DNA of 64,000 bases from Elusimicrobiales bacterium. Lineage in GTDB: Bacteria > Elusimicrobiota > Elusimicrobia > Elusimicrobiales > UBA9959. Below the pieces are notes generated by a model. The model saw only the letters and a program-made list of their open reading frames with translations. It was not told the origin of the DNA and did not search any database. Shown piece by piece: positions 9,386-63,200 of this stretch (position 1 is the stretch's first letter; every line of letters starts with the position of its first letter). Where the stretch lies: positions 539,346-603,345 of the forward strand of contig JBFXJL010000001.1 of the NCBI GenBank assembly GCA_050174915.1. Reading direction: 5' to 3'. A program made the translations under genes and the position numbers.

Positions 9386-9423
9386 AATGTTTGGTATGGT
9401 ACTAAATTATAATTAAGCGTTAA

Positions 9424-14282: not shown

Positions 14283-14298
14283 CAGGATCTCGGCCGAA

Positions 14299-15057: not shown

Positions 15058-15112
15058 GTGGTTATCTCCTCCTGTGTGTCTTGCGATATATTACAAATTT
15101 TGCCGCCCTTCC

Positions 15113-18578: not shown

Positions 18579-18655
18579 TGGTTGCGGGGGTTGGATTTGA
18601 ACCAACGACCTCAAGGTTATGGGCCTTGCGAGCTACCAGGCTGCTCTACCCCGCA
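18579..18655 (-). tRNA. tRNA with anticodon CAT (elongator Met or Ile2-type), CCA encoded
   Basis: Hand-folded cloverleaf, 77 nt: TGCGGGG TA GAGC AGCCTGGTA GCTC G CAAGG CCCATAA CCTTG AGGTC GTTGG TTCAAAT CCAAC CCCCGCA ACCA. All four stems are perfectly paired. It is not initiator-like: positions 1-72 are paired and the anticodon stem has only two G-C pairs. The anticodon loop has C where U33 is normally found. Confidence 0.85.
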
Positions 18656-29287: not shown

Positions 29288-29419
29288 ATAGCCACCGCCT
29301 CTTATAATTTACTTTAAATTCTACATATTATGCCCCCGCCCCGCAAAGAGGCTAAACCCCGTTATTTTGTATCATACACTCAAAGCGCGGGGCGGCAAAC
29401 AGGGGGCGGTTTTACGCTT

Positions 29420-32779
<3,360 letters not shown>

Positions 32780-38001: not shown

Positions 38002-39156
38002 CTAACCCCCGATAATTTTTACCAAGTCGCGCAGCGCGGCAGGGGCCCACAACGACGAGAATGCTGCCCCCAGCGTGAGCGCTGAGAAAACGTAGAAATA
38101 TTTTACCGAGTACAACCCGCCGAGAAAGCCGCCGGCCGCCGGCAGGTCCAGGCCGAAGACGGTGTAGCGCAGCCCGCCTTTAGGGCAGGCGTCCAGGCAT
38201 TGCCCGCAGAGGTTACAGTAGGCCAGGATCTCGGCCTTGCCGCCGAGGGCGCAGCTGATGGCCGTCATCGGGCAGGCGGCCACACAGCTCCGGCAGCCGC
38301 TGCACTGGTCGGCCGCGGCCGTCAGGCGGAAAGGATTCAGTCTGCCCCAGAAAGCCTGCCAGGCGGCGAAAGGACAGAGAAAGGAACAGAAGAAGCGCTT
38401 GCGGGTCAGCAGCGGCGCTATTACCAGCGCGGCCAGGGCCGCCAGCATCAGCGCGTACTGGGCGGTCCGGTGCCACCCCTGCCCGTCGAGAAAGGAGCCC
38501 GTGAGCTTGAACGGGCAGAGCCACAGGCAATACACCGGCAGCGCGTAGCCAAGCGACAGCAGCAGCAGGAAGATCAGCAGCGCCGCCGGCAGGTCGCGCG
38601 CTTTCAGCGCCCAGCGGTCGATCTTAAGCAGCGGTTTTTTGGGCAGGGCGCTCAGCCCGTCGTCGATGCCGCCGTAGAAGCAGGCCCATGAGCACCAGGC
38701 CCGGCCGATGGCCAGCGTGACGAACAGCCAGAGCGCGCCCAGGCTCAGCGGCCCCCACAAGGCCCAGCCGCCGGCGGCGAGCGCGAGGTACTGCTGGCGC
38801 AGGTAATTCAGAAAATACGGGGCCATCGCTATATGGCAGAAAGGCGTGTCCGTAAAACATGACGGAGCCAGCGACTTGGAGACCAGGCCGAGTTTGAAAT
38901 GCAGCAGGAAAGCCAGTGCGGAGACCGAGAAAAACAGCCTGCGCCAGGAGGAGACGCGGCCGGTGTAGGCTATGGCGAAGGCCGTCCCCCCGGCGAACAG
39001 CGCCCAGGCCAGCGCGTAGAGCCTGCTGATCTCCCTGCCCGCTATCGCCGAGGAGAAGAACAGAACCGGCACGAAAACCAGAAGCGCAAAGACCGCGGCG
39101 GCGGGCGCCGTGTTCCCGTTTTCGGCCGCGGGCTTCATCGGCAAGGGAAGTTTCAC
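38002..39156 (-). CDS. NapH/MauN/NosH-type membrane polyferredoxin (2 CX3CP motifs plus 2 [4Fe-4S] ferredoxin motifs)
   Basis: Polytopic. CX3CP motifs: CLWLCPF and CSFLCPF. Ferredoxin motifs: CSGCRSCVAACP and CNLCGQCLDACP. The start is either GTG 39156 (GTGA overlap with the upstream stop) or ATG 39138. Confidence 0.75.
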   Translation of the reverse strand: MKLPLPMKPAAENGNTAPAAAVFALLVFVPVLFFSSAIAGREISRLYALAWALFAGGTAFAIAYTGRVSSWRRLFFSVSALAFLLHFKLGLVSKSLAPSCFTDTPFCHIAMAPYFLNYLRQQYLALAAGGWALWGPLSLGALWLFVTLAIGRAWCSWACFYGGIDDGLSALPKKPLLKIDRWALKARDLPAALLIFLLLLSLGYALPVYCLWLCPFKLTGSFLDGQGWHRTAQYALMLAALAALVIAPLLTRKRFFCSFLCPFAAWQAFWGRLNPFRLTAAADQCSGCRSCVAACPMTAISCALGGKAEILAYCNLCGQCLDACPKGGLRYTVFGLDLPAAGGFLGGLYSVKYFYVFSALTLGAAFSSLWAPAALRDLVKIIGG

Positions 39157-40619
39157 CGTTGTCTCCCCTCCTCGAACGAGTCTACCGTAAAGGAATACAA
39201 GTCGGTACCGGCCTGCCGCCAGCAGTCGCGCGGCAACCCCGCTTTCTGGGCGCAGAGCTCGCCCATAAAATCATCTTTGGCCGGGATCTGGTCCCAGACC
39301 TGAGGCAGGAAAAGGCCGCTGCGGCCGTCCTTGCGCAAAAAGACTCCGGAGCCGTGCTTTATGGCGTCAGGCTGCACCGGCTCGAGGGGCGACAGCACGG
39401 AGATCTCCAGGCGTACCGCGGCTAATTCGTCCTCGCGCAGCGGCTTGAAGCGGCCGTCCTCGAACGCGGCGCCGAGGGCGCCGTAGCGCACGGCGTCGGC
39501 CAGCGTAAGTGCGGGCTGGACAGTGCCCACGCAGCCGCGCAGCGCGCCGCTCCGCAGCAGGGTCACGAAAGCCGCCCCCGGCAGGTTCAGCCGGGGATCG
39601 GCGTGCAGGCCGGCCGGGCTTTCCCCCCCGGAGAAATGCCGCTCCAGCGCCAGGCGGGCCTCGCTCAGGAGGGCCGCCTTTTGCTCTTTTGAGAGAGCAA
39701 GACTTGCGGGCCGGCCGGTTTTCAGGAAAAGGCCGGAAAGATAACCGACCACGCGGTCCGGGGAGCCCGCCGGGTTCTGGTCGTAGGAATTGGAAAGCGC
39801 CAGCGACCGGAAAGACTTAGCCCCCAGCAGGCGCGCGGCCGTGAGACCGGCTTCTATGGCTGCCTCGCCGCAGGCGCAGGTGTCCAGCCCGGGTATCTTT
39901 TTGCGCGCTATGAACTGCGCCGCGTCGCGCAGCAGGGCCGGGTCCATGGCCTCCAGGGCCAGGCGCAGCGCCCCGTCGGAAGCGGCGGCGTCGGCCCTGG
40001 ACGGGTAATGGGAAAGGTCGGCCGAGATCACGAGCAGCGCCTTTTTGCCTTTCAGCGCGCCGGCCAGGGCTGCGCCTATCTCCGCCCGCTCGGCCGGGCC
40101 GGCGGCGTTAAGGGTGGCGGCCAGCAGCTTGAAAGGTTTCTTCAGCCGGCGCTGCAGGAAAGGCAGTTGCACCTCCACGGCATGCTCGGCCGCGTGGGCC
40201 GAAGGCTTGTCCTCGAAGAGAGGGCTGGCTTTTACCAGCGCGGCCGCCAGGGCGCGATCGGGCTCCACCCTGCCCAGGGGCGTGACATAGGCGTCGGAGG
40301 CCAGCAGGGCAGCGCCGCGCACCCCCTCGGTATGCCCGGTGGCCAGGATGACAACGGTGTCGTAGCGGTCGGCGGTATATTTATAGGCGAGACCCGCCAG
40401 GCGGCCGGAGTATTCGTATCCGGCATGCGGCGCCAGCACCGCCGCGATCTCCCCCTCCGGCCCTGGGATCTTCCCGGCGGACAGGTACCCGTCCACGGCC
40501 GCGGCGAGAGCCGCGGGGTCCGACGGGTAGAAGCGGCCCGCTACGGCCGCTTCGCGCGCCCCCGCGGCTGCGCAGGAGGAGAGGCACAGCGCGGCGGAGA
40601 GTAACAATTCCAGACGCAT
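39153..40619 (-). CDS. fusion of Memo-like (AmmeMemoRadiSam system protein B) and AMMECR1 (protein A) domains, with an N-terminal lipoprotein-like signal
   Basis: N-terminus MRLELLLSAALCLSSCAAAG (lipobox-like LSSC). Memo blocks: GRFYPSDP, LAPHAGYEYSG, ADLSHY. C-terminal AMMECR1 block: AFVTLLRSGALRGCVGTVQP...AFEDGRFKPL...LEISVLSPLEPV. Confidence 0.8.
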   Translation of the reverse strand: MRLELLLSAALCLSSCAAAGAREAAVAGRFYPSDPAALAAAVDGYLSAGKIPGPEGEIAAVLAPHAGYEYSGRLAGLAYKYTADRYDTVVILATGHTEGVRGAALLASDAYVTPLGRVEPDRALAAALVKASPLFEDKPSAHAAEHAVEVQLPFLQRRLKKPFKLLAATLNAAGPAERAEIGAALAGALKGKKALLVISADLSHYPSRADAAASDGALRLALEAMDPALLRDAAQFIARKKIPGLDTCACGEAAIEAGLTAARLLGAKSFRSLALSNSYDQNPAGSPDRVVGYLSGLFLKTGRPASLALSKEQKAALLSEARLALERHFSGGESPAGLHADPRLNLPGAAFVTLLRSGALRGCVGTVQPALTLADAVRYGALGAAFEDGRFKPLREDELAAVRLEISVLSPLEPVQPDAIKHGSGVFLRKDGRSGLFLPQVWDQIPAKDDFMGELCAQKAGLPRDCWRQAGTDLYSFTVDSFEEGRQR

Positions 40620-44689: not shown

Positions 44690-45727
44690 CTACCAGATGA
44701 ACTGCACTCCCAGGCGATGGGTGGCGCCGAGGCTGCCGTAGTCCACGTAAGAGTAGTCCACGCGGGCCCCGCGCACCAGACTGTTCCTGTCCGCCAGCCG
44801 GTCGAAGTTCATGCCGAAGCCGCCGGAGAGCTTGGAGCCGGCGTCCTTGTTGTTGCGGTAGCCGAGGCGCAGCTGGAACATCTTCATCACGTCCATCTCC
44901 AGGCCGGTTACTGAGATGTAGTCCTGGTCGGTATATTTGACCATGTCCGAGGCCACCGTGAAAATCATGATGTCGTTGATGGTGCGGAAATCCTTGGCCA
45001 CGCCGAAGCGCAGCGACGAGGGCAGGCCGGAGGAGGCCTCCGCGAATTTCTGCCCCCCGCCCAAATTGAGCGCGGACATCCCGAGCTGGAAATGCCGCGG
45101 CAGCACCAGCGTCACCCCGGCGTCGAAAGCGTAGGTGCCGGAGGTTTCCCCGGCGAGTTTTTCGTCGATCTTCTTTACGCTGGCGCCCGCGGCAAGGCGG
45201 TAGACCTTGGGGCGGTAGTCGGTTACCGGCTCTATCCGGCTCCAGGGCGGGTTGATCAGCATCGGGTCCAGGCGGCCGGCGTCCTTCCTGAAATGCGGCC
45301 AGCTCTGCGCCACGGAGAGCACCAGCAGCCGGTGGCCGGTGGAGGTCTTGCCTATGGGCATGTCGTTATCGTCGTAGGCGTCGATGTCGCCGCTGGACAG
45401 CGAGGAGAAAGCCGCGCCCACCGTGGCGAAAGGGAAGCGCCAGGCCACGGCCAGGTACTCCTGCTTAACTCCGATGAGGTACTGGTTATGCGCTCCCGAG
45501 AAAGCGGAGTAGCTCATCAGGCCCAGGCCGGCGGGGTTGTAAAGGATGGAGTCGGGGCCGACCATGGCCGTGTAAGCCTCGCCCATACCACTGGGGAGCG
45601 CGGCCACCGGAATCTTGAGAAAATTAGCGGCTGTGGTGCCCGCCCCCTCGGCGCCGGCGGGCGCGGCAAGGCGGACGGCCAACAGGGCCGCCGCCGCAAC
45701 GCTCTCTAGATACCGCCGCATTTTCAT
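44690..45727 (-). CDS. PorV/PorQ-family-like outer-membrane beta-barrel protein
   Basis: ORF 44690..45784. The start is moved to ATG 45727 (MKMRRYLESVAAAALLAVRLAAPAGA, a signal peptide). The N-terminal block TTAANFLKIPVAALPSGMGEAYTAMVGPDSILYNPAGLG resembles the PorV/UPF0164 signature. Alternating beta-strand pattern, and the protein ends ...RLGVQFIW. Confidence 0.55.
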   Translation of the reverse strand: MKMRRYLESVAAAALLAVRLAAPAGAEGAGTTAANFLKIPVAALPSGMGEAYTAMVGPDSILYNPAGLGLMSYSAFSGAHNQYLIGVKQEYLAVAWRFPFATVGAAFSSLSSGDIDAYDDNDMPIGKTSTGHRLLVLSVAQSWPHFRKDAGRLDPMLINPPWSRIEPVTDYRPKVYRLAAGASVKKIDEKLAGETSGTYAFDAGVTLVLPRHFQLGMSALNLGGGQKFAEASSGLPSSLRFGVAKDFRTINDIMIFTVASDMVKYTDQDYISVTGLEMDVMKMFQLRLGYRNNKDAGSKLSGGFGMNFDRLADRNSLVRGARVDYSYVDYGSLGATHRLGVQFIW

Positions 45728-45917
45728 ATGGCAAAATGGCAGACAGGCCCAAAAACGCCCGTTCGCCGACATTATAGTATACACTAATGATAAAGCATTT
45801 CAATGACAGATTTGTTACAGTCCGCGGCGCTTTCTCCGCCCCTTGCGGTTCTCCTTGTGCCCGCCGCCCGCACTATAATATAATCGGTTAATACGCATAT
45901 TAATGCGGGGGACCCTA

Positions 45918-47423
45918 ATGATAAAATATTTCCTGTTTGCCGCCTTGGCGGCCTCGCAATTTCTCCTGGCCGCGGCGCCGCTGGCGGCCCAGACCGCCAG
46001 CCGGTCGTCTATAGAGGCCAAGCTCGCGCTGGAGAACTCGCTTGAGAAGCGCGTGCGCATGGTGCTCTCGGAGGCGCTGGGCACGGAGGACATCATAGTG
46101 ATGATCTCCGCCGAACTGCAGGAGCCGGACAAGAAGGCCAGGGAGATCCTTCCCGGCATCCCGCGCCAGGAAAAGATGGGCGAGGCCTCGCTGTCAAGCA
46201 GCCTCACCATGGTCAAGAAGATCTCGGCCAGCCTGATCCTCGACAAGTCCGTTTCCGAGGAGGACGCGCAGCTGGCCCGCAAACTGGCCGGCGGCCTGCT
46301 GGGCCTGCCCTCCGACAGGCAGGACCTGATAACCCTCGAGCGCATGGATTTCCGCAAGGTCCGGCCGCTTACCTTCGCCGACCTGTTCCTCCCCCCCAAC
46401 CTCTGGAGCCTGACCTGGATAGTAGTGGTGGGCGCCCTGGCCTTCCTGACCGTTTTCAAATTCCTGGCGCCGCTCTCGCGCAGCGCCGGAGCCTTCGTAG
46501 AGGCCTTCAGCGCCCACGCCGCGGCGGCCGCCGCCGGCGGAGAGCGCGCCGAACGCGGCGAGCGCCGCGACGAACCGGAAGCCCGCGAGACGGCCAAGGC
46601 GGCGCAGGAGGCCCAGGCCGCCCAGCCCGCCGACGGCCGCAAACCCCCGTTCTGGTTCCTGACCGCCGGGCACCTCTCCAGCCTGGCCTTCATCATGAAG
46701 TCGCGCCCGACCGAGGACCTGACCATCGTGCTCAGCTACGCCCCCGGAGACGTGGCGTCCCGGCTGGCAGAGACCCTCTACCCGAAAAGCGCCGACGCCC
46801 TGGCCCAGCTGCCCAAGGTGACCCTGATGCCGGAGGCGCGCATCCGCTCGCTCGAGGCCGAGATACAGGCCGCGCTGGACTACGTGGTGGGCGGCGAGGA
46901 CAAGGCCGTCGGCATAATCAGCGGCCTCGACGAAGCCGTGCAGGAGAAAGCCCTGGCGGCCTTCGCCCGCCTCGACCCCGTGATGGGCAAGAAGCTCAAC
47001 GCCTCCGTAGTGCGCCTGGCCAACATCCAGGACCTGGAACCGGCCCACGCGCAGACGCTGGCCCGCAGACTGCCGGTGAGAGTGCTGGCGGCAGCACTCA
47101 AAGGCTCCCCCCACGCGCCCGCCTTCCTGGCCAAGCTGGCAGGCGGAATGCAGGAGCGTTTCAAACAGGAGCTGGAACTAACCCGCGACCTGCCCGCCGA
47201 AGCCTACAAGAGCGACAGGGCCAGGGTGGTAGAGACTCTGCGCCAGCTGATCAAAGAAGGCCTGGTGACGCTCAGGGGCCGCGGCGCTCCCGCCCCCAGG
47301 CCCGCGGCCGCCCCGGCGGCGGCCAGGCCCGCCGGCGCGACCCCCGCCCCCGGCGTAAGACCAGCGGCCGCTCCGCCCGCCGCCGCCCCCAAGCCCCCGC
47401 CGGCCGCGGCCGCCAAACCCTGA
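45918..47423 (+). CDS. membrane protein combining a FliF/SctJ-like periplasmic domain, one TM helix and FliG-like middle and C-terminal domains
   Basis: ORF 45903..47423. ATG 45918 is preferred, giving MIKYFLFAALAASQFLLAAAPLAAQ (signal/TM1). ORF aa 36-148 run LENSLEKRVRMVLSEALGTEDIIVMISAELQ...SASLILDKSVSEEDAQLARKLAGGLLGLPSDRQDLITLE, an alpha-beta-beta-alpha-beta ring-building-motif-like pattern. TM helix LWSLTWIVVVGALAFLTVFKFLAPL. After a charged linker, aa 249-457 are FliG-like: RPTEDLTIVLSYAPGDVASRLAETL..., VRVLAAALKGSP..., GMQERFKQELELTRDLPAEAYKSDRARVVETLRQLIKEGLVTL. The tail is Pro/Ala-rich. Confidence 0.65.
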   Translation: MIKYFLFAALAASQFLLAAAPLAAQTASRSSIEAKLALENSLEKRVRMVLSEALGTEDIIVMISAELQEPDKKAREILPGIPRQEKMGEASLSSSLTMVKKISASLILDKSVSEEDAQLARKLAGGLLGLPSDRQDLITLERMDFRKVRPLTFADLFLPPNLWSLTWIVVVGALAFLTVFKFLAPLSRSAGAFVEAFSAHAAAAAAGGERAERGERRDEPEARETAKAAQEAQAAQPADGRKPPFWFLTAGHLSSLAFIMKSRPTEDLTIVLSYAPGDVASRLAETLYPKSADALAQLPKVTLMPEARIRSLEAEIQAALDYVVGGEDKAVGIISGLDEAVQEKALAAFARLDPVMGKKLNASVVRLANIQDLEPAHAQTLARRLPVRVLAAALKGSPHAPAFLAKLAGGMQERFKQELELTRDLPAEAYKSDRARVVETLRQLIKEGLVTLRGRGAPAPRPAAAPAAARPAGATPAPGVRPAAAPPAAAPKPPPAAAAKP

Positions 47424-47441
47424 CTCCCGAGGTAAACTATT

Positions 47442-48215
47442 ATGGACCTGATGACATTCCTTGGAGGCCTGACCGGGCTGGGCGTCATAATCTTCGTGCT
47501 CTCCACCGGCGGCATGCTGAAATTCCTGCTCAACTGGGAAGCCATTATCCTGATCTTCGGCGGTACGGCCGGCTCGGTGATGATCGCCTACCCCTGGGCT
47601 TCGCTGAAGTGGCTTAAGTCCTCGGTGAAAATGGTGATCTTCCCCCCCAAGCGCCCGGCCATACACGAGCTCATCCGCGCCATCGTGCGCTACGCCGAGA
47701 TCGGCAAGAAGAACGGCATCGACGCCATCGCCGGCGAGCTGCGCACCTCGCCGCACCCGTTCCTGACCGACGCCTGCCAGATGATGCTCGACGGCGTGGA
47801 CATACACATCCTGCGCGAGCGCATGGAAAACGACATCAACACCACCCGCCTGCGCCACCAGCAGCAGACCAACATCTTCAACTCGGCCGGCACCTTCGCC
47901 CCGATCTTCGGCCTGCTCGGCACGCTCATCGGCGTCGTGCAGGTGCTCCGCAACATCCAGGACCCGTCCAAGATGGGTTCGTCGATGGCCATCGCCATGA
48001 CCGCGTCCTTCTACGGCATCTTCTCGGCCAACTTCCTGTTCCTGCCCATCGCCAGCAAGCTGGGCTACTATTCCGACGAGGACATCCTCAGCCGCGAGAT
48101 CATCGCCAAGGGCGTGCTCTCCATCTACGACGGGGACGTGCCCTGGCTGGTCTCCAAGAAACTGGAAGGCTACCTGTCCCTGGCGCTGAGACGCAAGGCC
48201 AAGACGGGCGCGTAA
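47442..48215 (+). CDS. motA: MotA/PomA-family proton-channel stator protein
   Basis: 257 aa, 4 TM segments. Conserved blocks include both functionally important prolines: GTFAPIFGLLGTLIGV and SANFLFLPIASKL. GAGG sits upstream of the ATG. Confidence 0.85.
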   Translation: MDLMTFLGGLTGLGVIIFVLSTGGMLKFLLNWEAIILIFGGTAGSVMIAYPWASLKWLKSSVKMVIFPPKRPAIHELIRAIVRYAEIGKKNGIDAIAGELRTSPHPFLTDACQMMLDGVDIHILRERMENDINTTRLRHQQQTNIFNSAGTFAPIFGLLGTLIGVVQVLRNIQDPSKMGSSMAIAMTASFYGIFSANFLFLPIASKLGYYSDEDILSREIIAKGVLSIYDGDVPWLVSKKLEGYLSLALRRKAKTGA

Positions 48216-48245
48216 AGTCAGCGGCCGCTTACCGAGGCACAGCTC

Positions 48246-48920
48246 ATGAAGTTCTTCATCTCCAGATACTCCAGTTACAGAGTGGGCGACAACCCGCTCT
48301 GGCTGGTCGTGCTGGCGGACATCATGACCAACCTCATGCTGTTCTTCCTGATCCTCTACGTCTTCACCACCCGCCCCGACCTGGCCTCCAACTCCGAGTT
48401 CCTGGAGGGCTTCGACAAGGATACCGCCCAGCAGCAGAAGGAAAAGAAGGCCGAGGACGTGGTAAAGAAATTCACCGAGGAGGACCTGGCGCGCAAGCTC
48501 GCCGAGGACCTGCTCAAGGCGGGCATGAAGGACCTGGCCGAAGTGCAGATCACCGCCAAACAGATCAAGATTAACATCGCCGCCCCGGTGCTCTTCCGCT
48601 CCGGCAAGGCGGAGCTGGGCGGCTCTTCGGCCGAGGTGCTGGGACCGGTGGCCGCGGTGCTAAACACGCTGCCCAACGACGTGATAGTGGAGGGCCACAC
48701 CGACGCCGTGCCCATCAAGTCCGGCGACTACGGCACCAACTGGGAACTCTCGGCGGCCCGCGCCAACGCCGTGGTGGACCTGCTGGCCGCCAGGTACTCG
48801 GTGCCGCAGGAGCGGATGATAGCGGCGGCCTACGGCGAGCACCGGCCGGCCGCCCCCAACGACACGGCCGAAGGCCGCGCCAGGAACCGCAGGATCGAGA
48901 TCATAGTCCCCCGGGAATGA
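48246..48920 (+). CDS. motB: MotB-family stator protein 1 (OmpA-like peptidoglycan-binding C-domain)
   Basis: N-terminal TM helix with the channel Asp: PLWLVVLADIMTNLMLFFLILYVF. OmpA-like domain: VEGHTDAVP...NWELSAARANAV...NRRIEIIV. Confidence 0.85.
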   Translation: MKFFISRYSSYRVGDNPLWLVVLADIMTNLMLFFLILYVFTTRPDLASNSEFLEGFDKDTAQQQKEKKAEDVVKKFTEEDLARKLAEDLLKAGMKDLAEVQITAKQIKINIAAPVLFRSGKAELGGSSAEVLGPVAAVLNTLPNDVIVEGHTDAVPIKSGDYGTNWELSAARANAVVDLLAARYSVPQERMIAAAYGEHRPAAPNDTAEGRARNRRIEIIVPRE

Positions 48921-49567
48921 GCGAAAAGAAAGACATCTCCCAGCTCTGGATGGTCCCTTACGCGGACCTGATGACCTGCATGGTCATCCTGTTCCTTGCC
49001 CTCTACGGCTTCGCCTACAACATGAAAGGCTCCGAATACGAGAAGGCGCTGGCCCAGATGCAGAAGGAGCTGGGCATCAAGCACGCCGACCAGAAGCTCA
49101 GGGAGCTCGAGGCCGCCAGCAAGGTGGAAGAGGACCTGAAGGAACAGATCAAGGAAGGCAGCCTGGGCCTGGAGTTCAGCACGTCGCGCATCAAGCTCAC
49201 CTTCGCCTCGCCGGTGCTCTTCGACTCCGGCTCGGCCAGGCTCAAGCCGTCCGCGCTGGCGGTGCTGGATCCGGTGGCCGACAGCCTGCTGAAGATGGAA
49301 AACAGCGTGGTGGTGGAGGGCCATACGGATTCGGCCCGCATGCTCGGCAGGAAATTCGCCTCCAACCGGGAACTATCCATCATGCGCGCTTTCTCGGTGA
49401 TCGACTACCTGGCCTCCAGGGGCGTGAGCCCCGGGCGGCTCACGGCCTTCGGCTACGGGGAGTTCCGCCCGGCCGCCCCGAACGACACCGACGAGAACCG
49501 CGCCCGGAACCGGCGCATAGAGATGATCATCATGCGCCAGGAGCAGCCACAGGGAACCAAATCATGA
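48917..49567 (+). CDS. motB: MotB-family stator protein 2 (paralog)
   Basis: TM helix with Asp: QLWMVPYADLMTCMVILFLALYGF. OmpA-like domain: VEGHTDSARM...NRELSIMRAFSV...NRRIEMII. ATGA overlap with MotB-1. Confidence 0.85.
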   Translation: MSEKKDISQLWMVPYADLMTCMVILFLALYGFAYNMKGSEYEKALAQMQKELGIKHADQKLRELEAASKVEEDLKEQIKEGSLGLEFSTSRIKLTFASPVLFDSGSARLKPSALAVLDPVADSLLKMENSVVVEGHTDSARMLGRKFASNRELSIMRAFSVIDYLASRGVSPGRLTAFGYGEFRPAAPNDTDENRARNRRIEMIIMRQEQPQGTKS

Positions 49568-50490
49568 AAACACTTATCCTCGCCGCGGCGCTCGCCGCCT
49601 TCTCCGGGCCCGCCGCCCTGGCGCAGCCCGCCCCCGAAAATTTCGACCTCAAGGCCTATTACGACAAGGCCTTCTCCTATTACGTGGCCGGGGAATATTC
49701 CAAAGCCATCGAGCAGTGGAACATGGTGCTGCGCTCCGACCCCAAGCAGACCACCGCCAAGAACATGATAGAGGAAGCCCGCCGGAAAATGGCCGGTTCC
49801 GCTTCCGACCTGAAAGGCGCCTTCGCGCGCCTGGTACAGCGCGCCCAGTACGCCGACGCGCTGCAGAAGCTCGAAGAGCTGCTGGCCACCGACCCCACGA
49901 ACCCCTACTATGTGTCGGCCCAGGGCCGGTTGAGAACCATCTCGGCCATCGCCCCCCGCCGCCCTTCCGCCTCGCGCGCCTGGGGCGCCGCCGCGGACGG
50001 CATCGGCGCCTGGCTGGGAGAAAAAGCGGACCTGCCCTTCGCCTACGACGCGCTGCGTTACGCCGCCGAACTGGCCCCCGCCGAGCGGGCCTTTCCCCGC
50101 CTGGTGGCCGCTCTCGAGGCCGAGGCGCCCCAGCTGCGGCTCAACGACACCAAGCCGGAGAACGTAGCCGTGCTCGAGCACAAGAAGGAAAAGGCGCTGC
50201 ACCACATCTACGATTCCAAATTCTACCTGGCCGTCAAGGAGCTCGAAGGCGTGCTGCGCCTGGAGCCCGACGACGTCACCGCGCTCAAACGTGCGGGATC
50301 GGCCTACCTGCAGCTCAAGGATTACCGCCAGGCCCGGAGTTCCTGGCAGCGCGCGCTGGAGCTCTCCCCCGGCGACGAGCAGCTGCCGGAATACCTGAAG
50401 GCGCTCGACGAGGCCATGCCCGAGGCCGCCCGGCCCGGGCCGAGCAAAACCCGGAAAGGCGCCCGCAAACAGGCCGGCGCCCGCTACTGA
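49564..50490 (+). CDS. periplasmic TPR-repeat protein
   Basis: Signal peptide MKTLILAAALAAFSGPAALAQ. TPR-like units (YYDKAFSYYVAGEYSKAIEQWNMVLRSDP; GSAYLQLKDYRQARSSWQRALELSP). ATGA overlap with MotB-2. Confidence 0.75.
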   Translation: MKTLILAAALAAFSGPAALAQPAPENFDLKAYYDKAFSYYVAGEYSKAIEQWNMVLRSDPKQTTAKNMIEEARRKMAGSASDLKGAFARLVQRAQYADALQKLEELLATDPTNPYYVSAQGRLRTISAIAPRRPSASRAWGAAADGIGAWLGEKADLPFAYDALRYAAELAPAERAFPRLVAALEAEAPQLRLNDTKPENVAVLEHKKEKALHHIYDSKFYLAVKELEGVLRLEPDDVTALKRAGSAYLQLKDYRQARSSWQRALELSPGDEQLPEYLKALDEAMPEAARPGPSKTRKGARKQAGARY

Positions 50491-50512: not shown

Positions 50513-50538
50513 AAAAAGGGCCGGCAGCGGCCCTTTTT
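50513..50538. terminator. bidirectional intrinsic terminator between the motor operon and the convergent beta-barrel gene
   Basis: AAAAA GGGCCG GCAG CGGCCC TTTTT. Confidence 0.7.
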
Positions 50539-50560: not shown

Positions 50561-52474
50561 TCAGAAAGAGTAATTGTACCTGGTCATCACGTTCAGCACG
50601 GTCTCGTCGGCGGCCGGGTTGAGGTTGTCCGCGCGCGAGACCCCTCCCACGCCGAAGGTAAACCGGGAGTTCTGGCTCTTCAGCCAGACCGTTTCCACGT
50701 TGAGCGTGACGGAGCTGTTGTCGGCCGGCGAGAGGGGCGAGTCGTTCTCGGCCGAGGCCAGCGTGGCCCAGCACTGCACCGCCATGCCGCGCCGCGGCAT
50801 GGCGTAGGAGAGGCTGGCGGTGAGGCTGTTGTTCTTGCCGGTGGAGGAATCAACCTTGTCCTTCGTCTCGGAACTGACCAGGCCCGTCGACAGGGACAGG
50901 CGCCGGTTGAGCTTGAAAGAGCCGTTGAGAGAGAGCAGCGAGCTGTCCAGGTCGTGCGACAGGCCCAGGTTATCCTTGAAGGAAGACTGCTGCACGCCGG
51001 CCGACAGCGTGTGGCGGCCCAGCGGCTGCGTTACCGAGAGGTTGAGCGTGGTGGTCTGGTTGTCCTGTACGCCCTCGGTCTGGGCCTTGGCGGTATTGGT
51101 CATGATCGAGGTGTTCACCACCGTCTTGCCCAGGATCCTCAGCGTGTTGCCCAGCGTGGTCTGGGCCTGGTCCGTGGTGGTCTTGGCCGGGTCGGCGTCG
51201 AGGTTGTCGGTGTAGGCGTTGTAGGCCACCGTGAAGGTGGTCCAGTCCGCCGGAAAAAGCCCCAGCTCGGCGTCCAGCACCTCCCGGTCCGCGATCACCG
51301 ACGGACTACCGAAGGAATAGAATTTGGGATCTATGCGCGACAGCGCGCCGCGCGCGGTAAACAGGTCGGCGCGGTATTTAAGTTCCTGCTTCCAGGCCGA
51401 GCCGCCCACCGCCGCCCCGGAGGCTTCCAGGTCCGCTTTGTAGGCGCTCATCTGGAAATCGCTGTTGAGGGAGAACGCCTTCAGGAACTTCCACTCGGCG
51501 TTGAGACCGTAGACCACGGTCTGCTGGGGCTTGATGGTCAGCGCCGTCGTGGTGATGTTGATGGAATGCATGTCGTCACGGCTCATCACCGCGTCCGCCG
51601 AGACCTTGAGGTTGGGCCGGAACTGCCAGCCGGCCTTCAGGCCGCTGGTATAGCGCGCGAAGCGGCCGCCGCTGTTGGGGCCAGGCTCCTCGGGCGCCAC
51701 GATGCGCCCCACCAGGGCCAATAACGAATACTTTCCCCGCGCCCGCTCGAACGAGACGCCGCGCATGCCCTGCCCGTCCATCGACAGCGGCGTCAGGGTG
51801 GGCGAGATGTCGCCTACGCTCAGGGTACCCCAGGGGGCGTAGTAGTTGAGCAGCACTATCGTGGGCGTGATCGGGCGGTGGTAGGTGTGCACCACGTAGG
51901 TATTGAACAGGAAGGAGGACTGGCGGATCTTGCCCACCAGATTGGCCGACGTGATCCCCTGGTGGTGGTCCCAGCCGTCGCGGCTGTTGTTCTTGTAGGT
52001 GAAAGAGACGTCGCCGCCGATCTTGAAATCTTCGGGCACAGTGTAGCGCAGCTCCTTTTCTATGACCTGGAAGCCCTTGAAATCGGTCTCGAGGATGCGG
52101 CGGCCGTCCTTGATGAGGAAGACGCGGTAAAGCAGGCGGCGGCCGGCCAGGTTGTCGGGCACGCGGAAAGCCAGCTGCACGCCCTGCGCCGCGCCCGGGG
52201 CCACGTCCTCGGCCGGCGACACGCTGGCCGTCTGGGTGAGAAAGCGGCGGCCCTCACCCTCTATGGCGTATACCTCGCCTATCCAGTAGTAACTGCCGCG
52301 CTCCCACACGGAGGCGCCGCTGTTGACGGCCAGCGTCTGAAGCGTCACTTCCTCGCCGGCCATCACCGGGTCGGGCGCGGCCACCGTGAACTGCAGGCTC
52401 GCGGCGTCCTGCGCCAGCAGCGGCCGGGCCTGACAGACGAGGGAGAAAAATATTATTGCGGCAAGTTTACGCAT
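50561..52474 (-). CDS. outer-membrane beta-barrel protein with an N-terminal Ig-like domain, unknown family
   Basis: Signal peptide MRKLAAIIFFSLVCQARPLLAQ. The alternating-residue beta-strand pattern persists throughout. C-terminal OMP signature ...VMTRYNYSF (terminal Phe). Confidence 0.7.
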   Translation of the reverse strand: MRKLAAIIFFSLVCQARPLLAQDAASLQFTVAAPDPVMAGEEVTLQTLAVNSGASVWERGSYYWIGEVYAIEGEGRRFLTQTASVSPAEDVAPGAAQGVQLAFRVPDNLAGRRLLYRVFLIKDGRRILETDFKGFQVIEKELRYTVPEDFKIGGDVSFTYKNNSRDGWDHHQGITSANLVGKIRQSSFLFNTYVVHTYHRPITPTIVLLNYYAPWGTLSVGDISPTLTPLSMDGQGMRGVSFERARGKYSLLALVGRIVAPEEPGPNSGGRFARYTSGLKAGWQFRPNLKVSADAVMSRDDMHSINITTTALTIKPQQTVVYGLNAEWKFLKAFSLNSDFQMSAYKADLEASGAAVGGSAWKQELKYRADLFTARGALSRIDPKFYSFGSPSVIADREVLDAELGLFPADWTTFTVAYNAYTDNLDADPAKTTTDQAQTTLGNTLRILGKTVVNTSIMTNTAKAQTEGVQDNQTTTLNLSVTQPLGRHTLSAGVQQSSFKDNLGLSHDLDSSLLSLNGSFKLNRRLSLSTGLVSSETKDKVDSSTGKNNSLTASLSYAMPRRGMAVQCWATLASAENDSPLSPADNSSVTLNVETVWLKSQNSRFTFGVGGVSRADNLNPAADETVLNVMTRYNYSF

Positions 52475-57204: not shown

Positions 57205-60200
57205 TTACTTCAATAGCAGGGTCGCCTTCCCGCCGACGCAGTTGGTCAGGAACAACCCGACGCTGGTGCCGCTGGAGGGAAGCCCGACGCCTCCAACCGC
57301 ACCGACCGTGGCTGAAGTGACAGCATGCTGCCCAAATGCGCCGTTGATGCAGTTGGCAACAACTACTCCGGCCACCGCTATTTTGGCCGTGCTAGCCACT
57401 GTACCGCTGCCAATCGCCACACCGATAACGGTGGAAGTAGAAGCCACCCCTATGGTGCCGAACTGATTGTTCCCGGAAGCGATCACCACGTCGCCATCCA
57501 CAAAAGGTGTTGAAGCGGTCAGCCAGATCACTATCGGCGTATTCCCTATCTGACTGCCGTCGCCGAGCCCCAGGTCTCCGCTAACCTGCAGCCTGGCGGG
57601 GTTGGCCGGGTTAACGCCGTCGTTCGTAATGAAGACGTTGCCTTCGAAACGGCCGGCATAACCGCTGCCGGCCACGCCTTTTATAGCGGTCGCGGCGCTG
57701 TTAGACCAGCCATAAACGCCGGCGTCCGTGCTACTGGGTGAACTGGTCAGGCCCGCGATCGCCCCCCCGGCCAAGTCCTTCACATGCAGCTTAAAGCCGG
57801 GGGTGTTAGTGCCTATCCCGACCTTGTTGGCATTACTGACGTAAAGCGCGGGGTCGGCGTAGGCTGTACCGGTGGAAACCCAGAAGCCGCCGGCGGCTTT
57901 AAACATCACCTGGTCCCCCACCGAATTCTCCACCACCACGCCCTTGCTGTCGGCCCAGGTGAACGTGCCGTTAGCCGTGGAACTGGACATGTAACCGGCC
58001 GCGAAGGAATAGTTGCCTTTGGCCGTGTTGTTGCTGCCGCCCGGCACGGCGGAATCTCCGCCGGTCGCCATGTTGGAGGAGCCGCCGGCTACCACCGAAT
58101 TGTCCCCGGTTGCATGGTTGCCGCCGCCGGCGCCCACGAACGAGGATCCGCCCAGGGCCTTGTTCCCCCAGCCGGCCACCACGCCCGCGTAATATTCAGA
58201 AGCCGCACCCGCAGTGTTCATCCAGCCGCCGGCCACCACGGAGTAGGCCGTGCTGGCGGTATTGCCGTAACCGCTTCCCACGAAGGCGAACATTTCTTCG
58301 GCGAGGTTGTCCTGGCCGGAGAAGATCGCCGAGTGGCTCCCGTACACGGAGTTGCCCTTACCGCCTCCGATAGTACCGAAGTAGGAGGCCGCGTAGTTGC
58401 CCTCGCCGCCGGAGATGACGGCCGAAGTGCCGGCCGCTATGTTGTAGCGGCCGCCGGCTACCACGGTGTTGGAACCGAGCACGGTGTTGTAGGCGCCGCC
58501 GCTGAGGGTTGAAAAATCGCCCAGCGCCACCTGGCCGGACACCTCGCGGGCCGTCTGCAGGTCCACCGCCCCCATGCCGCGCACCCCCGCGCCCGAGATG
58601 CCGTTGCCCACACCGACCGTGACTATGGAGCCGGCCGTCGATACCTGTATTCCGGTAGTAGCGAAGTCATATGTGTAAAGCGCGGGATCAACACTGATGG
58701 TAAGGTTGCCGGACATATTGTCGCCGGTCTTCGACACTTTAGAGGAAAGCGCGTCCACCTGGGCGTAAAGCACGCCGGAAGCCGTCATGCTGGCGCGTAT
58801 CACGCCGCCGGCGTCGCGCCATATCTGCGCCACCGTGGCAGTGGAGCGTATGTCCAGCATGGCCTGCGGGGCTCCGGTAGCGATACCGACGCCGCCGTCG
58901 CTCCGTATCACCATGCGCGTCTGCGCCTCCGCGGTGCCGTCGGCAGCTGTCATGAACTCCAGCCTGCCGGGCATATCGAGCGCGGGATGAACGCTGGCCA
59001 CGCCGTCCACGCGGCCGACTATCGCCGCCGCGGTCGGGAATGGGTCTCCGGGCGAGGCGTTATAGCCGCCGAAGGCCAGCACGCCCAGGTTGTCTCCGGA
59101 CTGGACCACGGCCTGCGAATTGGCCGTGCCGCGCGCCTTGAGCAAGGCGAGATAGGAGCCTTCAGGAGTATCGCTGTTATGCTCCACCACAATGCCCTCG
59201 TCCTTGGTGGCCGCGGTAAGGTGCAGCGGGGCCTGAGGCCGCTGCGTGTTGATACCAACCCAGCCGCCGGTGGTCACCACCAGGTGGTAAGCGGAGGCCG
59301 AAGTTCCCACGCGCACGGTGTAGGAGGAAACGGCCACATCGGCCTGCACCACGCTCAGCGCCGCGTCGGGCGCGGGCGTGCCCACGCCCAGGCGGTTCTC
59401 CACCACAAGGCTGTTGGCCGGAGGATGGGCTAGGTTGTAGGTGGCCCCCACGCTCATGCTGCCCTTCAACTGCAGCTGCGGGGACAGGAGATCGCTCTGT
59501 ATGCCGGCGCCGGGGCCAATACCGATGTGCTCGCCGCCGTAACCCACATGCATGTATTTCGTGGCCCCGCTATAGAAGACCATACCGCCAGCCCCGTTGG
59601 ACAACAGCCCGTCGGTAACGGGGTTGCCGCCGGCATTGGTGGAGATCAGCACCCTGCCGGAAATGTCCAGCGCCTCGGCCGGCGAAGCGATTCCGATGCC
59701 CACACGCCCGGCATCGGTGACGCGCAGGCGCTCAGTGCCCGCGGTGGCAAAAGCAAGCTGGTCCTGGCCAGGGCTATAAAAGCCCGTATTTTCATCCCCG
59801 CTGAAGGAAAGGGAAGGCACCGCGGCCGTTCCCTGCGGCAGCAGCAGCGCGCCGGTCATGGTGTCGCCGGTCTTCTGCACCGCGCTGGCAGAGGTAACGC
59901 CGGTCAGGCCGGAGCCGTCTCCATAGTAGCGCGCTGCGGAACTGAAGCCGACTACATAGACATTAGTGGAGATCCTGATGCCGGCGCCTAAGGCCGGGTC
60001 GGTCTCCGGGGAAATGGTGCGGGAGGCGTCCGACAGGACCAGGCCCGCGCTGGTGCCGCGCGTCGTTATCGAGCCGTTATAGACGTCGAACTTAGAGGCG
60101 GGACCTGTGGAACCCATGGAGATCTTCCCGTCCCCGCGCACGGAGAGAACCGTGTTCGCTCCGTTGTTGGCCGTAATGTTCAAGGCATACTTAGTTGGGC

Positions 60201-63200
60201 TGGAGGTCATGAGCGCGATAGTGACGCCATCCGAAGAACTATTGTCAGTAACGAAATGGGCTATCCCTCCGGTTCCCTGCCCGAGAACGCTCAACGGCAG
60301 CAGCGGAGCGGCGACGTCTTTCTGTACTACCGACAGGAGGGCGCTGGGAGTAGCGGTACCGACGCCGACCAGGCCGGAGTCGACGAAGAAAGTGGAGACG
60401 CCAACGCTGAAGGCGTTGCCTTGCACGGTGATAGTGGAGAGCGTCGTCAGCTGCCCGCTCATGAAGTCGCCGGTCTTTTGCACCGCACCGGCGGAGGTAA
60501 CGCCCGTCAGGCCCGAGCCGTCGCCGTAGAAGACGCCGGTGGCGGTGACGCTGGCGCGCGTCACGCCGTCAGAGTCGCGCCAGACCTGGGCGTACTGGTT
60601 GACCGTGGTGCCCGTGGAGATGATATCGAGCATGCCTTGGTTAAGCGGAAGTACCGGATTGCCGGCTACCGTGCTGCCAACGACCATGAAGCCGCCCTCG
60701 GTCTTGAACAGCGCGCGGTCGGCGGCGGTATTGCGTATTTCGTACCCCTTGGAGTCGCTCCAGGTGAAGGCGCCGTTGGCGGTGGAAGAAGATCGGTAAC
60801 CGCCGGCCCAGGAATACTGCCCAATGGCGGTATTATACGCGCCGCCGGAAACCGTCGCGCGGCCACCGCTGGCGCTATTGTTTTGACCGCCGGAAACCGT
60901 CGCGTAGATACCATTTGCCGTGTTTTGAGAACCGCCGGTAATAGTCGCATACGTACCGCTGGACCTGTTTTGATAACCGCCGGAAACAGTCACATATAAT
61001 TGCAAGGCCGTATTTTCATAACCGCCGGAAACCGTCGCATAGCCCAAAGAGGCCATGTTGCTTTGACCGCCGGAAACCGTCGCCTGAGGACCGCTGGCCG
61101 TGTTATTTACGCCGCCGGAAACCGTCGAATAATCGCCACTGGCGGTATTATTTTGACCACCGCCAATCGACGAAACTTTCCCGCTGGCCACCTGGGCCCC
61201 CAGGGCCCGGTAGGTCTGCAGGTCCACGGCTCCCATGCCGCGTGCGTTGCCGACGGCGGAGCCGTGGCCGAGGCCCGTGGTGCGTATCGCGCCGCCGGTG
61301 GAGATGACTATGCCGGTGGTGATGAAGTCCGAAGTGTCGCTCAGAAGGTCGTCGGAAAGTATAGACAGCGGCCCGGTCATGGTATCGCCGGACTTGAGGA
61401 CCGAACCGGCAGCGGCCGGCAGATTGGTAAGGCCGGAACCGTCGCCGTAGAAGACGCCGGTGGCAGTGACGCTGGCGCGCGTCACGCCGTCCGAATCGCG
61501 CCAGATCTGGGTATAATCGCTGACCGTATTGCCAGCGGCCAGCACGTCCAGCGCGGCCTGCGGGGCGCCGGTGGAAATGCCAACGCGGCCTTCGCCGGTG
61601 ATGAAGACGCCGCGGTCCAGGGGGCCGGTCATCGAGGTGTTGGTGGAACCGGTCACCAGGAAGCCGCCGCGGCTCTTGAACACGGTGCGGTCGGTGACAT
61701 CGTTGACAAGGTTAATGGCCGCTCCGCCGCTGTCCTGCCAGGTGAAGGCGCCCTGCGCTGTAGAGCTGGACCGCCCGCCGGCGGCGAAGGAATAATTGGC
61801 TTTCGCCGTGTTGTTGTATCCGCCGGGCACGGTCGCGTACATCCCGCTCGCGCGATTGTCGTTACCGCCGCCCACGAAAGCGTACTGCGCTTCGGCGCGG
61901 TTGCCGGCTCCGCCCGCCACGGCCGACTGGGCGCTGATGGCGGCGTTCCCCTGTCCTCCCGCCACTACAGCGTGGTTGGCCGAGGCCGTATTGCCCTGGC
62001 CGCCACCGACGTAAGAGTAGGCGTTGACAGCGGTATTTGAAAGACCGCCCCCGGCCGAGGAGTGCATTCCTGACGCGATATTATACTCGCCGCCGGCCAC
62101 CACGGCGGAAGTGCCGACTACCGTGTTATAAGCGCCACCGCCTACGACCGAATTGGAGCCGCTGACCACATTGAACACGCCGCCGGAAACAGCAGAGGAA
62201 TGACCGCTTACGACATTATCTATACCGCCGCCGACAGTGGAATAATACGCGGAAGCTGAATTAGTTTCACCTCCCGAAATGACGGACCGCAGGCCAGTGG
62301 CGCTATTTTCCCACCCGCCGCCGACTACGGCAGCGACACCGCTGGCGCTATTTGTATAACCACCGCCCACGGTGGAGTAGATGCTGCTGGAGGTATTTCT
62401 GAATCCTCCGGACAGGACCGAGTAGCTGCCGCTGGCTGTCTGGGCCGACAGTGCCCGGACGGTCTGCAAGTCCACCGCACCGATGCCGCGGGCGTTGCCG
62501 GCGACCGTGCCGTGACCTATGCCCGTGGTGCGTATCGCGCCGCCGGTGGAAATGACGAGGCCGGTGGTGATGAAATCCGAAGTGTCGCTCAGAAGGTCGT
62601 CGGAAAGGATATGTAGCGGCCCGGTCATAGTGTCGCCGGCCTTCTGCACCGCGCCGGCGGAGGTAACCCCGGTCAGGCCGGAGCCGTCGCCTATGAAGCG
62701 CACCGCCTGCAGGGAACCGGTGACGCTCATAGAACCGACGATAAGGCCGGTAGAGTCGCGCCAGATCTGGGCCATCTGCGTATGTGCGGTGCCTGTCGAG
62801 ACTATGTCCAGAGCCGCCTGCGGGGCACGCGTGGAAATACCTACGGTTTTAACGCCCAGCTGGCCAAAGATCAGCCCGCCGATATTCAGTTCGCTCGCGG
62901 AGTCAGAAGCTGAGGTCTGCTGATTGTAGCCGATGACGATGTTCTGAAGTCCGCTAATATTGGCGCTCCCGGCAGCGGAGCCGATAAACGTGTTCCCTGT
63001 GCCGGTGATATTAGCGGAGCCGGCATCGTGGCCTACCAGGACATTATGGATCCCGGAACTATTGACCTTTCCGGCAGCCGAACCCACAAATACGTTAAAT
63101 TGCCCGTAGTTTACCGCGCCGGCCATCGGCCCGACCTTAAGCGTATTGGAGGCCAGCCCGCCGCCCAGGGCCAGCACCGTGCTGCCGCTGACCTGGTAAT

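Follow-up and report, generated by a model that had tools for sequence, protein, structure and literature searches.

A natural FliF/FliG-like fusion protein encoded with flagellar-type stator genes in Elusimicrobiota, and its linkage to outer-membrane protein genes

To our knowledge FliG is known only in the C-ring, on the scaffold made by FliF and the export gate. The Myxococcus Agl-Glt gliding motor has an A subunit, AglR, and two Asp-bearing B subunits, AglQ and AglS, and connects to a complex that spans the envelope and includes TPR proteins and outer-membrane barrels. The FIT/GIT classification in an account of MotAB evolution (PMC12505986) treats the flagellar stator clade as exclusively flagellar and does not mention Elusimicrobia, and engineered FliF-FliG fusions of Salmonella and Vibrio form MS/S-rings (PMC10941966; PMC11481574; PDB 8z4d/8z4g). 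In the phylum Elusimicrobiota a few genomes have complete flagellar gene sets, and most free-living members lack flagellar structural genes yet have homologues of motAB, flbD and fliG by KEGG annotation, the role of which was called enigmatic, with a speculated link to twitching (10.1101/2022.07.08.499144). We describe here a cassette of five genes, conserved among Elusimicrobia of groundwater, at positions 45918-50490 of a 64,000-nucleotide stretch of Elusimicrobiales bacterium DNA (UBA9959, a metagenome-assembled genome; GenBank assembly GCA_050174915.1, contig JBFXJL010000001.1, positions 539,346 to 603,345 of the forward strand; "the window" below means this whole stretch). Its first gene, G1, encodes a natural minimal fusion of about 500 aa, made of a domain like FliF ring-building motif 3 (RBM3), a transmembrane (TM) helix and the FliG middle and C-terminal domains (FliG-M and FliG-C), which is a putative rotor subunit. 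The following genes encode a MotA protein, two MotB paralogs and a periplasmic TPR protein, G5.

That G1, MotA, MotB1 and MotB2 make up a working non-flagellar rotor-stator pair is in our judgment quite probable. The best overall explanation that we can offer for the locus, a flagellum-independent motor driven by the proton-motive force (pmf), built from flagellar parts and coupled to an outer-membrane surface-protein apparatus, is one that we think about equally likely to be right or wrong as a whole.

The fusion protein and its stator

The cassette genes and the parts of G1 are as follows:

45918-47423, + strand: G1 (from the list of open reading frames (ORFs) and reading of the sequence)
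45990-46367, + strand: periplasmic alpha-beta-beta-alpha-beta domain of G1, aa 25-150, similar to FliF RBM3 in the AlphaFold2 (AF2) model
46395-46475, + strand: transmembrane helix of G1, about aa 160-186 by hydropathy (AF2 helix 159-207)
46650-47264, + strand: FliG middle and C-terminal domains of G1, about aa 245-449, by family profile
47145-47186, + strand: torque helix of G1, aa 410-423, in FliG-C
47442-48215, + strand: motA, flagellar-type MotA/PomA stator A subunit
48246-48920, + strand: motB1, MotB paralog 1, with TM Asp25, plug and OmpA-type peptidoglycan-binding domain
48917-49567, + strand: motB2, MotB paralog 2, with TM Asp17, plug and OmpA-type domain
49564-50490, + strand: G5, periplasmic TPR protein with a signal peptide and no lipobox

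The initial annotation of this region, made from the sequence, had described five co-directional genes with two short gaps and two ATGA overlaps, ended by a terminator, and all of this is exactly so: 18 nt separate G1 from motA and 30 nt separate motA from motB1, and the overlaps join motB1 to motB2 at 48917-48920 and motB2 to the TPR gene at 49564-49567. motB2 is translationally coupled to motB1. An alternative ATG for G1 is present at 45903, and a GGGGG Shine-Dalgarno-like run lies 5' of 45918.

The G1 polypeptide consists, in order, of a signal/TM1 segment, an RBM3-like periplasmic domain, a TM helix, a disordered Ala/Glu/Arg linker, FliG-M, FliG-C and a Pro/Ala tail; the same order of signal/TM segment, ring-building motif, TM helix and FliG-M/C had been proposed at the outset, and profile comparison, Foldseek and AF2 modelling all support it. 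Hydropathy places the hydrophobic segments at aa 1-24 and about aa 160-186, flanking the periplasmic region as in FliF. The full-length AF2 model, made with 57 homologues as input, has a mean pLDDT of 78 and is all-helical from aa 250 to 447. Pfam FliG_C matches G1 at 38.8 bits (cutoff 23.3), Pfam FliG_M is detected in distant members of the G1 family, and a 57-sequence family profile matches the middle and C-terminal domains of Thermotoga maritima FliG (3AJC, 1LKV) with E ~7e-28 at profile positions 239-451, in an alignment that spans residues 3-222 of the FliG-MC crystal constructs. The Gly-Gly linker of FliG is kept in this alignment (VGGED in G1 vs VGGID). G1 E418 and D/E420 stand opposite acidic residues of DELE in the T. 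maritima torque helix, and in 48 G1 sequences E418 and D/E420 are each present in every one, E/D413 in 46, R414 in 41 and R423 in 40; Q417 is likewise conserved among orthologues.

How good is the evidence for the FliF part? With the full G1 model as query, Foldseek places FliG chains on top and FliF chains next, with no other fold family at E<=0.1. The periplasmic domain modelled alone (AF2 pLDDT 75) has as its best 16 PDB matches FliF RBM3/S-ring structures, with E from 2.5e-4 to 5e-3 and probability 1.0. Sequence-only searches of this domain against the PDB give E 0.2-0.3 at best (FliF 9yh6, E 0.29), and because these matches are weak it is the fold search, together with the Pfam hits of relatives, that carries the FliF connection. 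The relatives P0379, P0389 and P0323 carry Pfam YscJ_FliF_C, several family members combine YscJ_FliF_C, FliG_M and FliG_C, and a FliF-like "...RGD.v.V....F" motif is retained directly before the TM helix in distant members. A conserved, low-confidence insertion of 30 residues (LPGIP...) in G1 occupies the position of the FliF beta-collar. The profile and structure searches proposed with the initial annotation thus find in G1 a FliG fold and a probable RBM3-like fold of FliF, which supports the ring-building part assigned there. Only one such motif is present: RBM1 and RBM2 are absent from the periplasmic region of about 135 aa. The FliG-binding C-tail of FliF is replaced by the covalent FliG-MC fusion. 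Such a fusion is compatible with ring formation, since the engineered FliF-FliG fusions do assemble rings (PMC10941966; PMC11481574), and one of these, 8z4d, is matched both by the G1 family profile and by the fold search.

G1 nevertheless differs from canonical FliG. No FliG_N match is found in G1, in which a low-complexity, low-pLDDT linker runs from the TM helix to FliG-M. In the window lineage the EHPQR and MFXF motifs are not kept (EHPQ aligns with RPTE/RPVE and MFVF with SVVR); versions closer to the canonical ones, IFLFED and IFTFD, survive in the distant members P0330 and P0357. The FliG equivalog model TIGR00207 gives 22.4 bits vs a cutoff of 226.7. G1 cannot take the place of canonical FliG because it has neither FliG-N nor the FliM-binding motif EHPQR, and we rejected its membership among canonical FliG proteins on FliG-N, EHPQR/MFXF, equivalog score and flagellar context. 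The low-GC family member P0357, 662 aa long, keeps more of the canonical FliG motifs (DEQPRTIA, IFTFD); it has a larger periplasmic insertion and, after FliG-C, extra TPR-like repeats on the predicted cytoplasmic side.

The stator proteins are of recognizable type. MotA has four TM segments, a large cytoplasmic loop between TM2 and TM3, the loop charges and the two channel prolines (FAPIFG, FLPIA); Pfam MotA_ExbB matches it with E 6e-24, and over its whole length it can be aligned with Paenibacillus MotA1 (9lu9; E 2.5e-53) and with PomA (E 4.5e-39), while TolQ and ExbB give E values of 0.002-0.06 only. It misses the cutoffs of the NCBIfam flagellar MotA equivalogs (185 bits vs 340 for PRK08124 and 182 vs 237 for PRK09109). 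Among 47 MotA orthologues K or R fills positions 89 and 90 and E or D position 99, and P202 does not vary; the PomA counterparts in the alignment are R88 and K89 for K/R89 and K/R90, and E96 for E99. By sequence, MotA belongs with the flagellar stators and not with the generic Tol/Exb-type motors of PMC12505986.

Both MotB proteins match Pfam OmpA and MotB_plug above the cutoffs and have flagellar MotB proteins as their best PDB matches. The TM Asp stands in the motif LADIMT in MotB1 and YADLMT in MotB2, and it is conserved as D25 in 41 of 45 MotB1 and as D17 in 41 of 42 MotB2 orthologues. The channel prolines, TM aspartates and OmpA-type anchors listed in the initial annotation are therefore all present. 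The order of the two MotB genes is fixed: in all loci the first is orthologous to MotB1 (G3) and the second to MotB2 (G4), even where G1 identity is about 31%. Because the orthologues hold their positions in all loci, the duplication must be old and both copies have been retained. The ancient paralogy, the fixed order and the ATGA coupling together suggest that MotB1 and MotB2 form a heteromeric pair.

Distribution and gene neighbourhood of the cassette

G1 of the window is 96% identical to that of "Elusimicrobia bacterium HGW-Elusimicrobia-3" and 93% identical to that of GWB2_63_16, both of which are GTDB o_Elusimicrobiales, f/g_UBA9959. A genome scan found 58 GTDB species-level loci, all of them in Elusimicrobiota or in metagenome-assembled genomes (MAGs) without a name, and an exhaustive hidden Markov model search at E<=1e-30 found, with clustering at 50% identity, at least 226 clusters, and in nearly all of them the full-length architecture is the same. 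A search begun from the distant member P0330 extends the G1 family to the class Endomicrobia, and the next-best matches of P0330 beyond the family are ordinary FliG proteins of 335-340 aa with 33-37% identity (Firmicutes, Synergistetes). The cassette is thus present in both classes of Elusimicrobiota, at G1 identities of 30-96%, and the conserved synteny that the initial annotation proposed to look for in public genomes is found across the Elusimicrobiota loci. All named sequences in both protein searches are from Elusimicrobiota, most of the metagenomic representatives carrying no taxonomy, and the cassette is likely restricted to this phylum.

The cassette is under strong purifying selection. 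Its ORFs are intact in about 60 loci, and close comparisons give each of the seven genes of the extended locus a dN/dS within 0.05-0.15, with 0.05 for motA and 0.12-0.14 for the PorV-like gene described below.

Are other flagellar genes nearby? Pfam and NCBIfam scans covered ORFs of >=180 aa throughout the 64 kb, with shorter ORFs included only between 43 and 53 kb. No other flagellar domain was found among the window ORFs of >=180 aa, so that the claim that these are the only flagellar genes in 64 kb is borne out at this size limit, and the Pfam-annotated flanks of 10 other cassette loci contain no flagellar genes either. Two window ORFs, 505-3643 and 9480-10463, gave no family matches.

The features on the two sides of the cassette are as follows:

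44690-45784, - strand: PorV/PorQ-family outer-membrane beta-barrel gene, divergent from G1 (NCBIfam PorV_fam)
45785-45917: divergent intergenic (promoter) region, 133 nt, AT-rich
50513-50538: bidirectional terminator-like hairpin between the convergent operons
50561-52474, - strand: gene of OM637, an unclassified probable outer-membrane beta-barrel protein of 637 aa
52520-57130, - strand: Kelch/FN3/CarboxypepD_reg surface protein of 1536 aa with a C-terminal sorting domain (CTD) of type IX secretion system (T9SS) type A
57205-63963, - strand: 2252-aa protein without a recognised domain, at the head of the minus-strand operon

The hairpin is G+C-rich, has an A-run on one side and a T-run on the other, and lies between the stop codons of the convergent genes, at 50490 and 50561. 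The divergent promoter region of the initial annotation exists as a 133-nt AT-rich region, in which our sigma-70 scan of 45785-45917 found sites for the minus-strand gene only and no promoter for the + strand operon. That annotation had also taken the five genes as the whole unit; the five genes stand, but the functional unit is larger, as it includes the convergent gene of OM637 and probably also the divergent PorV-like gene.

The product of 44690-45784 matches NCBIfam PorV_fam at 99.3 bits (cutoff 90). G5 has TPR repeats by Pfam and a weak ybgF/BamD-type TPR match, and it is kept in all loci of the class Elusimicrobia. In three loci of another lineage (L066, L067 and L068) a homologous PorV-like barrel and a G5-like TPR domain are joined in one polypeptide, the gene of which lies directly upstream of the G1 homologue, and the homology of G5 to the TPR half of this fusion extends beyond the TPR repeats. 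The PorV-like barrel is a probable outer-membrane partner of G5.

The linkage of OM637 to the cassette is the most consistent of any neighbour. Across all lineages of the class Elusimicrobia its gene lies convergent and downstream in every locus with enough sequence, including those with G1 at 31-34% identity, and the linkage persists in the deepest branch, where the upstream dxs/ispA synteny is lost. OM637 has a signal peptide and the C-terminus ...YNYSF; its only Pfam matches are weak and sub-threshold (OMP_b-brl, BBP2 and N_BRCA1_IG, the last an Ig-like N-domain), none of its approximately 160 homologues has a Pfam domain, and a family profile search found no relatives in the PDB. The homologues with an organism name are all from Elusimicrobia/Elusimicrobiota (one is named just "bacterium"), and most are metagenomic and without a name.

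OM637 is encoded by the last gene of an operon that starts with giant surface proteins, in the window those of 2252 and 1536 aa. The C-terminus of the 1536-aa protein matches TIGR04183 at 24.2 bits (cutoff 23), and the protein has Pfam Kelch and related domains; its homologues adjoin OM637 in distant loci as well. This Kelch protein, co-operonic with OM637, is a candidate for the cargo or output of the system. The 2252-aa protein, which has one marginal repeat match and otherwise no Pfam or NCBIfam domain, is only tentatively included, on the basis of gene order. In the deep branch the corresponding operon encodes a giant Kelch/beta-helix protein, a protein of about 700 aa and a FecR-like protein. 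Elsewhere the neighbours vary in detail: beside the cassette of L067 are a CHU_C protein (type B CTD) and a barrel of 553 aa that matches the PorV/PorP families (PorP/SprF-like) weakly, below the cutoffs, and L066 and L068 have giant DUF2341/BNR proteins upstream with FlgD_ig or a type A-like CTD. In L064, a locus of the deep branch where the G1 homologue is 598 aa long, two extra genes (12285-15627, - strand) lie between the TPR gene and the OM637 homologue; their products of 526 and 590 aa appear by eye to be polytopic and hydrophobic and have no family matches.

L068 also contains, at 6327-9433, a split or frameshifted copy in which the PorV-like barrel lies in two frames and is followed by the TPR part, a stand-alone FliF-like protein of 289 aa and a FliG_C protein of 176 aa, with no motAB following. 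An error of assembly, decay of the genes or a naturally unfused form could each account for this.

Regulatory genes adjoin the cassette in several loci, as stand-alone receiver proteins, histidine kinases and a MerR-receiver fusion (L003/L004, about 7050-7470; L064, 20590-20976; L065, 13737-15194; L067, 5522-7450 and 13138-13779), and this may point to control by two-component systems of a motor without a FliM/CheY-binding site. The window itself has two large hybrid sensor kinase genes, at 20983-24294 (- strand) and 29330-32779 (+ strand); one domain set is PocR, PAS, kinase ATPase and REC, and the other is CHASE3, PAS, HisKA, two REC and Hpt. Further from the cassette, 16254-18437 (- strand) encodes a PilB/T2SSE-type ATPase with an N-terminal MshEN domain and a C-terminal response-regulator receiver domain, with a GHKL ATPase-domain gene adjoining it at 15113-16246 and a tRNA-Met at 18579-18655. 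A 488-aa fusion of the AmmeMemoRadiSam system proteins B (Memo) and A (AMMECR1) is encoded at 39153-40619 (- strand), next to a NapH-like polyferredoxin membrane protein gene (38002-39156, - strand) with no obvious radical SAM partner.

Possible function and rival explanations

If the parts act as their relatives do, G1 would oligomerise through its RBM3-like domain into a membrane ring that displays the FliG torque helix on its cytoplasmic face. MotA with the MotB1/MotB2 pair would form a peptidoglycan-anchored 5:2 stator, probably with a B heterodimer, in which proton flow through the two channels with the conserved Asp residues would turn the MotA pentamer, and MotA K/R89, K/R90 and E99 would push on G1 E413, R414, E418, D/E420 and R423. 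With EHPQR and MFXF lost in this lineage, the motor would do without a FliM/N switch, and the cluster holds neither an export gate gene nor a rod gene; in place of a rod, force might pass from the periplasmic face through G5 to the PorV-like barrel and OM637. The output would then be secretion, anchoring or lateral movement of the giant surface proteins with T9SS-type CTDs, a T9SS-like or gliding-like function in which MotAB and FliF/G might stand in for GldLM. We think it somewhat less likely than not that the output is the outer-membrane surface-protein apparatus, and we compare the system with the T9SS in its manner of working without placing it among T9SS members. The strongest form of the proposal, a third kind of envelope-spanning rotary machine with a FliF-RBM3/FliG ring that has no axle, export gate or switch, a heteromeric stator and a TPR/PorV-like module that secretes or propels giant CTD adhesins, we regard as doubtful. 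The more general suggestion of the initial annotation, a pmf-driven rotor-stator module repurposed for a non-flagellar task, agrees well with the conserved flagellar-type parts and their lack of flagellar neighbours.

A number of observations weigh against the proposal of a flagellum-independent motor coupled to the outer membrane. The likeness of G1 to RBM3 is at the level of fold only (TM-score ~0.5, E ~1e-4), and YscJ_FliF_C gives 14.1 bits for the window G1, below its cutoff of 23.8 (E 0.065). Judged from the sequence, G1 domain mechanics may differ from those of FliG, as the MFXF hinge and EHPQR are missing. On the output side, OM637 is unrelated by hhalign to the PorP-like protein of L067 or to a 610-aa protein of L066, and GldK/L/M/N, SprA/Sov and PorU were not found among the window ORFs of >=180 aa. 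The Endomicrobia locus L065 has G1, MotA, MotB and MotB followed by a histidine kinase, with no TPR protein, barrel or giant protein nearby, and CTD proteins may be numerous in such genomes, so their adjacency could be partly due to chance.

Could the cassette instead be a dispersed fliG/motAB locus of an ordinary flagellum, with G1 serving in a canonical basal body as an atypical paralog of FliG (or FliF)? All of the parts are flagellar in type, MotA is closest to MotA1/PomA, in family members the FliG part shows 33-37% identity to the canonical FliG proteins of Firmicutes and Synergistetes, and a few Elusimicrobiota are reported to have complete flagellar sets (10.1101/2022.07.08.499144). 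This is nevertheless very unlikely: G1 has neither FliG-N nor EHPQR and is itself anchored in the membrane by a FliF-like domain, it scores only about a tenth of the TIGR00207 cutoff (22 bits vs 227), our scans turned up no further flagellar gene in the 64 kb or in the flanks annotated for the 10 other loci, and most free-living Elusimicrobiota keep fliG/motAB without structural flagellar genes (10.1101/2022.07.08.499144). The related idea that the cassette is what remains of an ancestral flagellum, in decay and without a function today, which would agree with a mostly non-flagellated phylum (10.1101/2022.07.08.499144) and with the split FliF-like/FliG_C pair without motAB in L068, is extremely improbable, because dN/dS is 0.05-0.15 for all seven genes; the ORFs are intact in about 60 loci, functional residues are invariant, translational coupling is preserved, and the cassette is conserved over both classes down to about 30% identity.

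A rather unlikely alternative is Tol-Pal-like envelope maintenance, in which the 5:2 motor tethers or remodels the outer membrane and peptidoglycan and G1 is a non-rotating, TolA-like receiver of force. The cassette does parallel TolQ-TolR-Pal-CpoB in having a MotA_ExbB protein, Asp-bearing B subunits, OmpA domains and a TPR protein, the last with its weak ybgF/BamD-type match; it is linked to outer-membrane barrels, and its wide occurrence and strong purifying selection would suit a housekeeping role. MotA, however, has the large torque-generating loop of the flagellar type, and against TolQ it reaches E 0.002 only, G1 has a conserved FliG torque helix and not a TolA-like architecture, and the cluster has no TolB or TolA homologue, its neighbours being giant surface proteins with CTD sorting signals. 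A device for signalling or mechanosensing, or an accessory of type IV pili and twitching, in which stator-G1 engagement reports surface contact or pmf to two-component systems, would account for the response regulator genes that adjoin the cassette in L003/L004 and L064, the histidine kinase gene in L065, and the histidine kinase, response regulator and MerR-receiver genes in L067. The link to twitching speculated previously (10.1101/2022.07.08.499144) and the PilB-like ATPase with a receiver domain that the window encodes 28 kb from the cassette also point in that direction. We think this quite unlikely, as no pil gene is adjacent in any locus examined, and the consistently linked genes encode outer-membrane and surface proteins while the regulators vary by locus.

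In the literature that we searched we found nothing on the fusion protein, on the conserved cassette, on the pairing of its MotB paralogs or on its link to the outer membrane, so the impression of novelty in the initial annotation was right for the architecture; the bare presence of fliG and motAB in the phylum had already been noted (10.1101/2022.07.08.499144). A flagellar-type stator and a FliG torque domain are here under strong selection, in a minimal fused form, throughout a largely non-flagellated phylum. If the third kind of rotary machine proposed above is real, it would show that rotor and stator can persist and function as a pair without the type III export apparatus. Whether it is a reduced descendant of the flagellum or a model of an intermediate, the cassette bears on rotor-stator association independent of type III export. 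G1 is in addition a natural minimal rotor with which sufficiency for stator engagement and torque can be tested. Should the outer-membrane output be confirmed, this may be a categorically new machine. The cassette may also reveal how a phylum outside Bacteroidota energises the display or movement of giant adhesins at the outer membrane. Its recognition would further correct the KEGG-style labels "flagellar motor switch protein FliG" and "MotA/B", which make non-flagellated MAGs look partly flagellated.

Comparison with described systems

With the flagellar motor core the cassette shares a probable RBM3-type ring domain, FliG-M/C with a charged torque helix, a MotA with loop charges and channel prolines, and MotB with its TM Asp, plug and OmpA-type anchor. 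In flagella FliF and FliG are separate proteins at 1:1, whereas the cassette fixes this ratio by fusion in one polypeptide, from which RBM1, RBM2, the FliF C-tail and FliG-N are absent. The cassette further differs in having two obligate MotB paralogs, in having no FliM/N, export gate, rod, hook or filament genes in the window or the examined flanks, and in having outer-membrane barrels and giant surface proteins as neighbours in their stead. The engineered FliF-FliG fusions are full-length laboratory constructs (945 aa) within a complete flagellar system, unlike G1, which is natural, about 500 aa long and phylum-wide.

Zorya (ZorAB) likewise has a MotAB-like 5:2 module outside flagella, and both MotB paralogs match ZorB models, but MotA has no ZorA match, there is no ZorC/D/E, and the matches of the MotB proteins to flagellar MotB/MotD are much stronger; Zorya was rejected because PADLOC gave no ZorA match for MotA and only generic ZorB matches for the MotB paralogs. 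Tol-Pal with CpoB/YbgF has in common with the cassette a motor of the MotA_ExbB family, OmpA-type peptidoglycan binding and a TPR protein last in the operon, and differs in that the cassette lacks TolA/TolB, has only a marginal TolQ match and contains a FliG torque domain. Membership in Tol-Pal was rejected on the tolQ match (E 0.002; 17.9 bits for MotA on the tolQ equivalog vs a cutoff of 221) and on the absence of TolA and TolB from the window.

The T9SS and gliding machinery of Bacteroidota (GldLM/PorLM) resembles the locus in several respects: genes of a pmf-driven 5:2 motor occur with a PorV/PorQ-family barrel, the giant surface proteins bear CTDs (type A, or type B in L067), a barrel gene lies 3' of the cargo gene as sprF does after sprB, and there is a TPR-containing periplasmic link (compare PorE/PorW). 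The motor of the cassette is by contrast MotAB with a FliF/G rotor and not GldLM, the window has no GldK/N, SprA/Sov or PorU, OM637 is unrelated to PorP, and Elusimicrobiota lie outside the group in which the T9SS has been described; we infer the functional link from gene order and one domain fusion only. The Agl-Glt motor matches the cassette in having one A subunit with two distinct Asp-bearing B subunits. AglRQS is, however, of the TolQR type ("GIT" group, PMC12505986), without OmpA domains and without a FliG partner, whereas the stator of the Elusimicrobiota cassette is of the flagellar type ("FIT"-like) and has a FliG-bearing partner encoded beside it.

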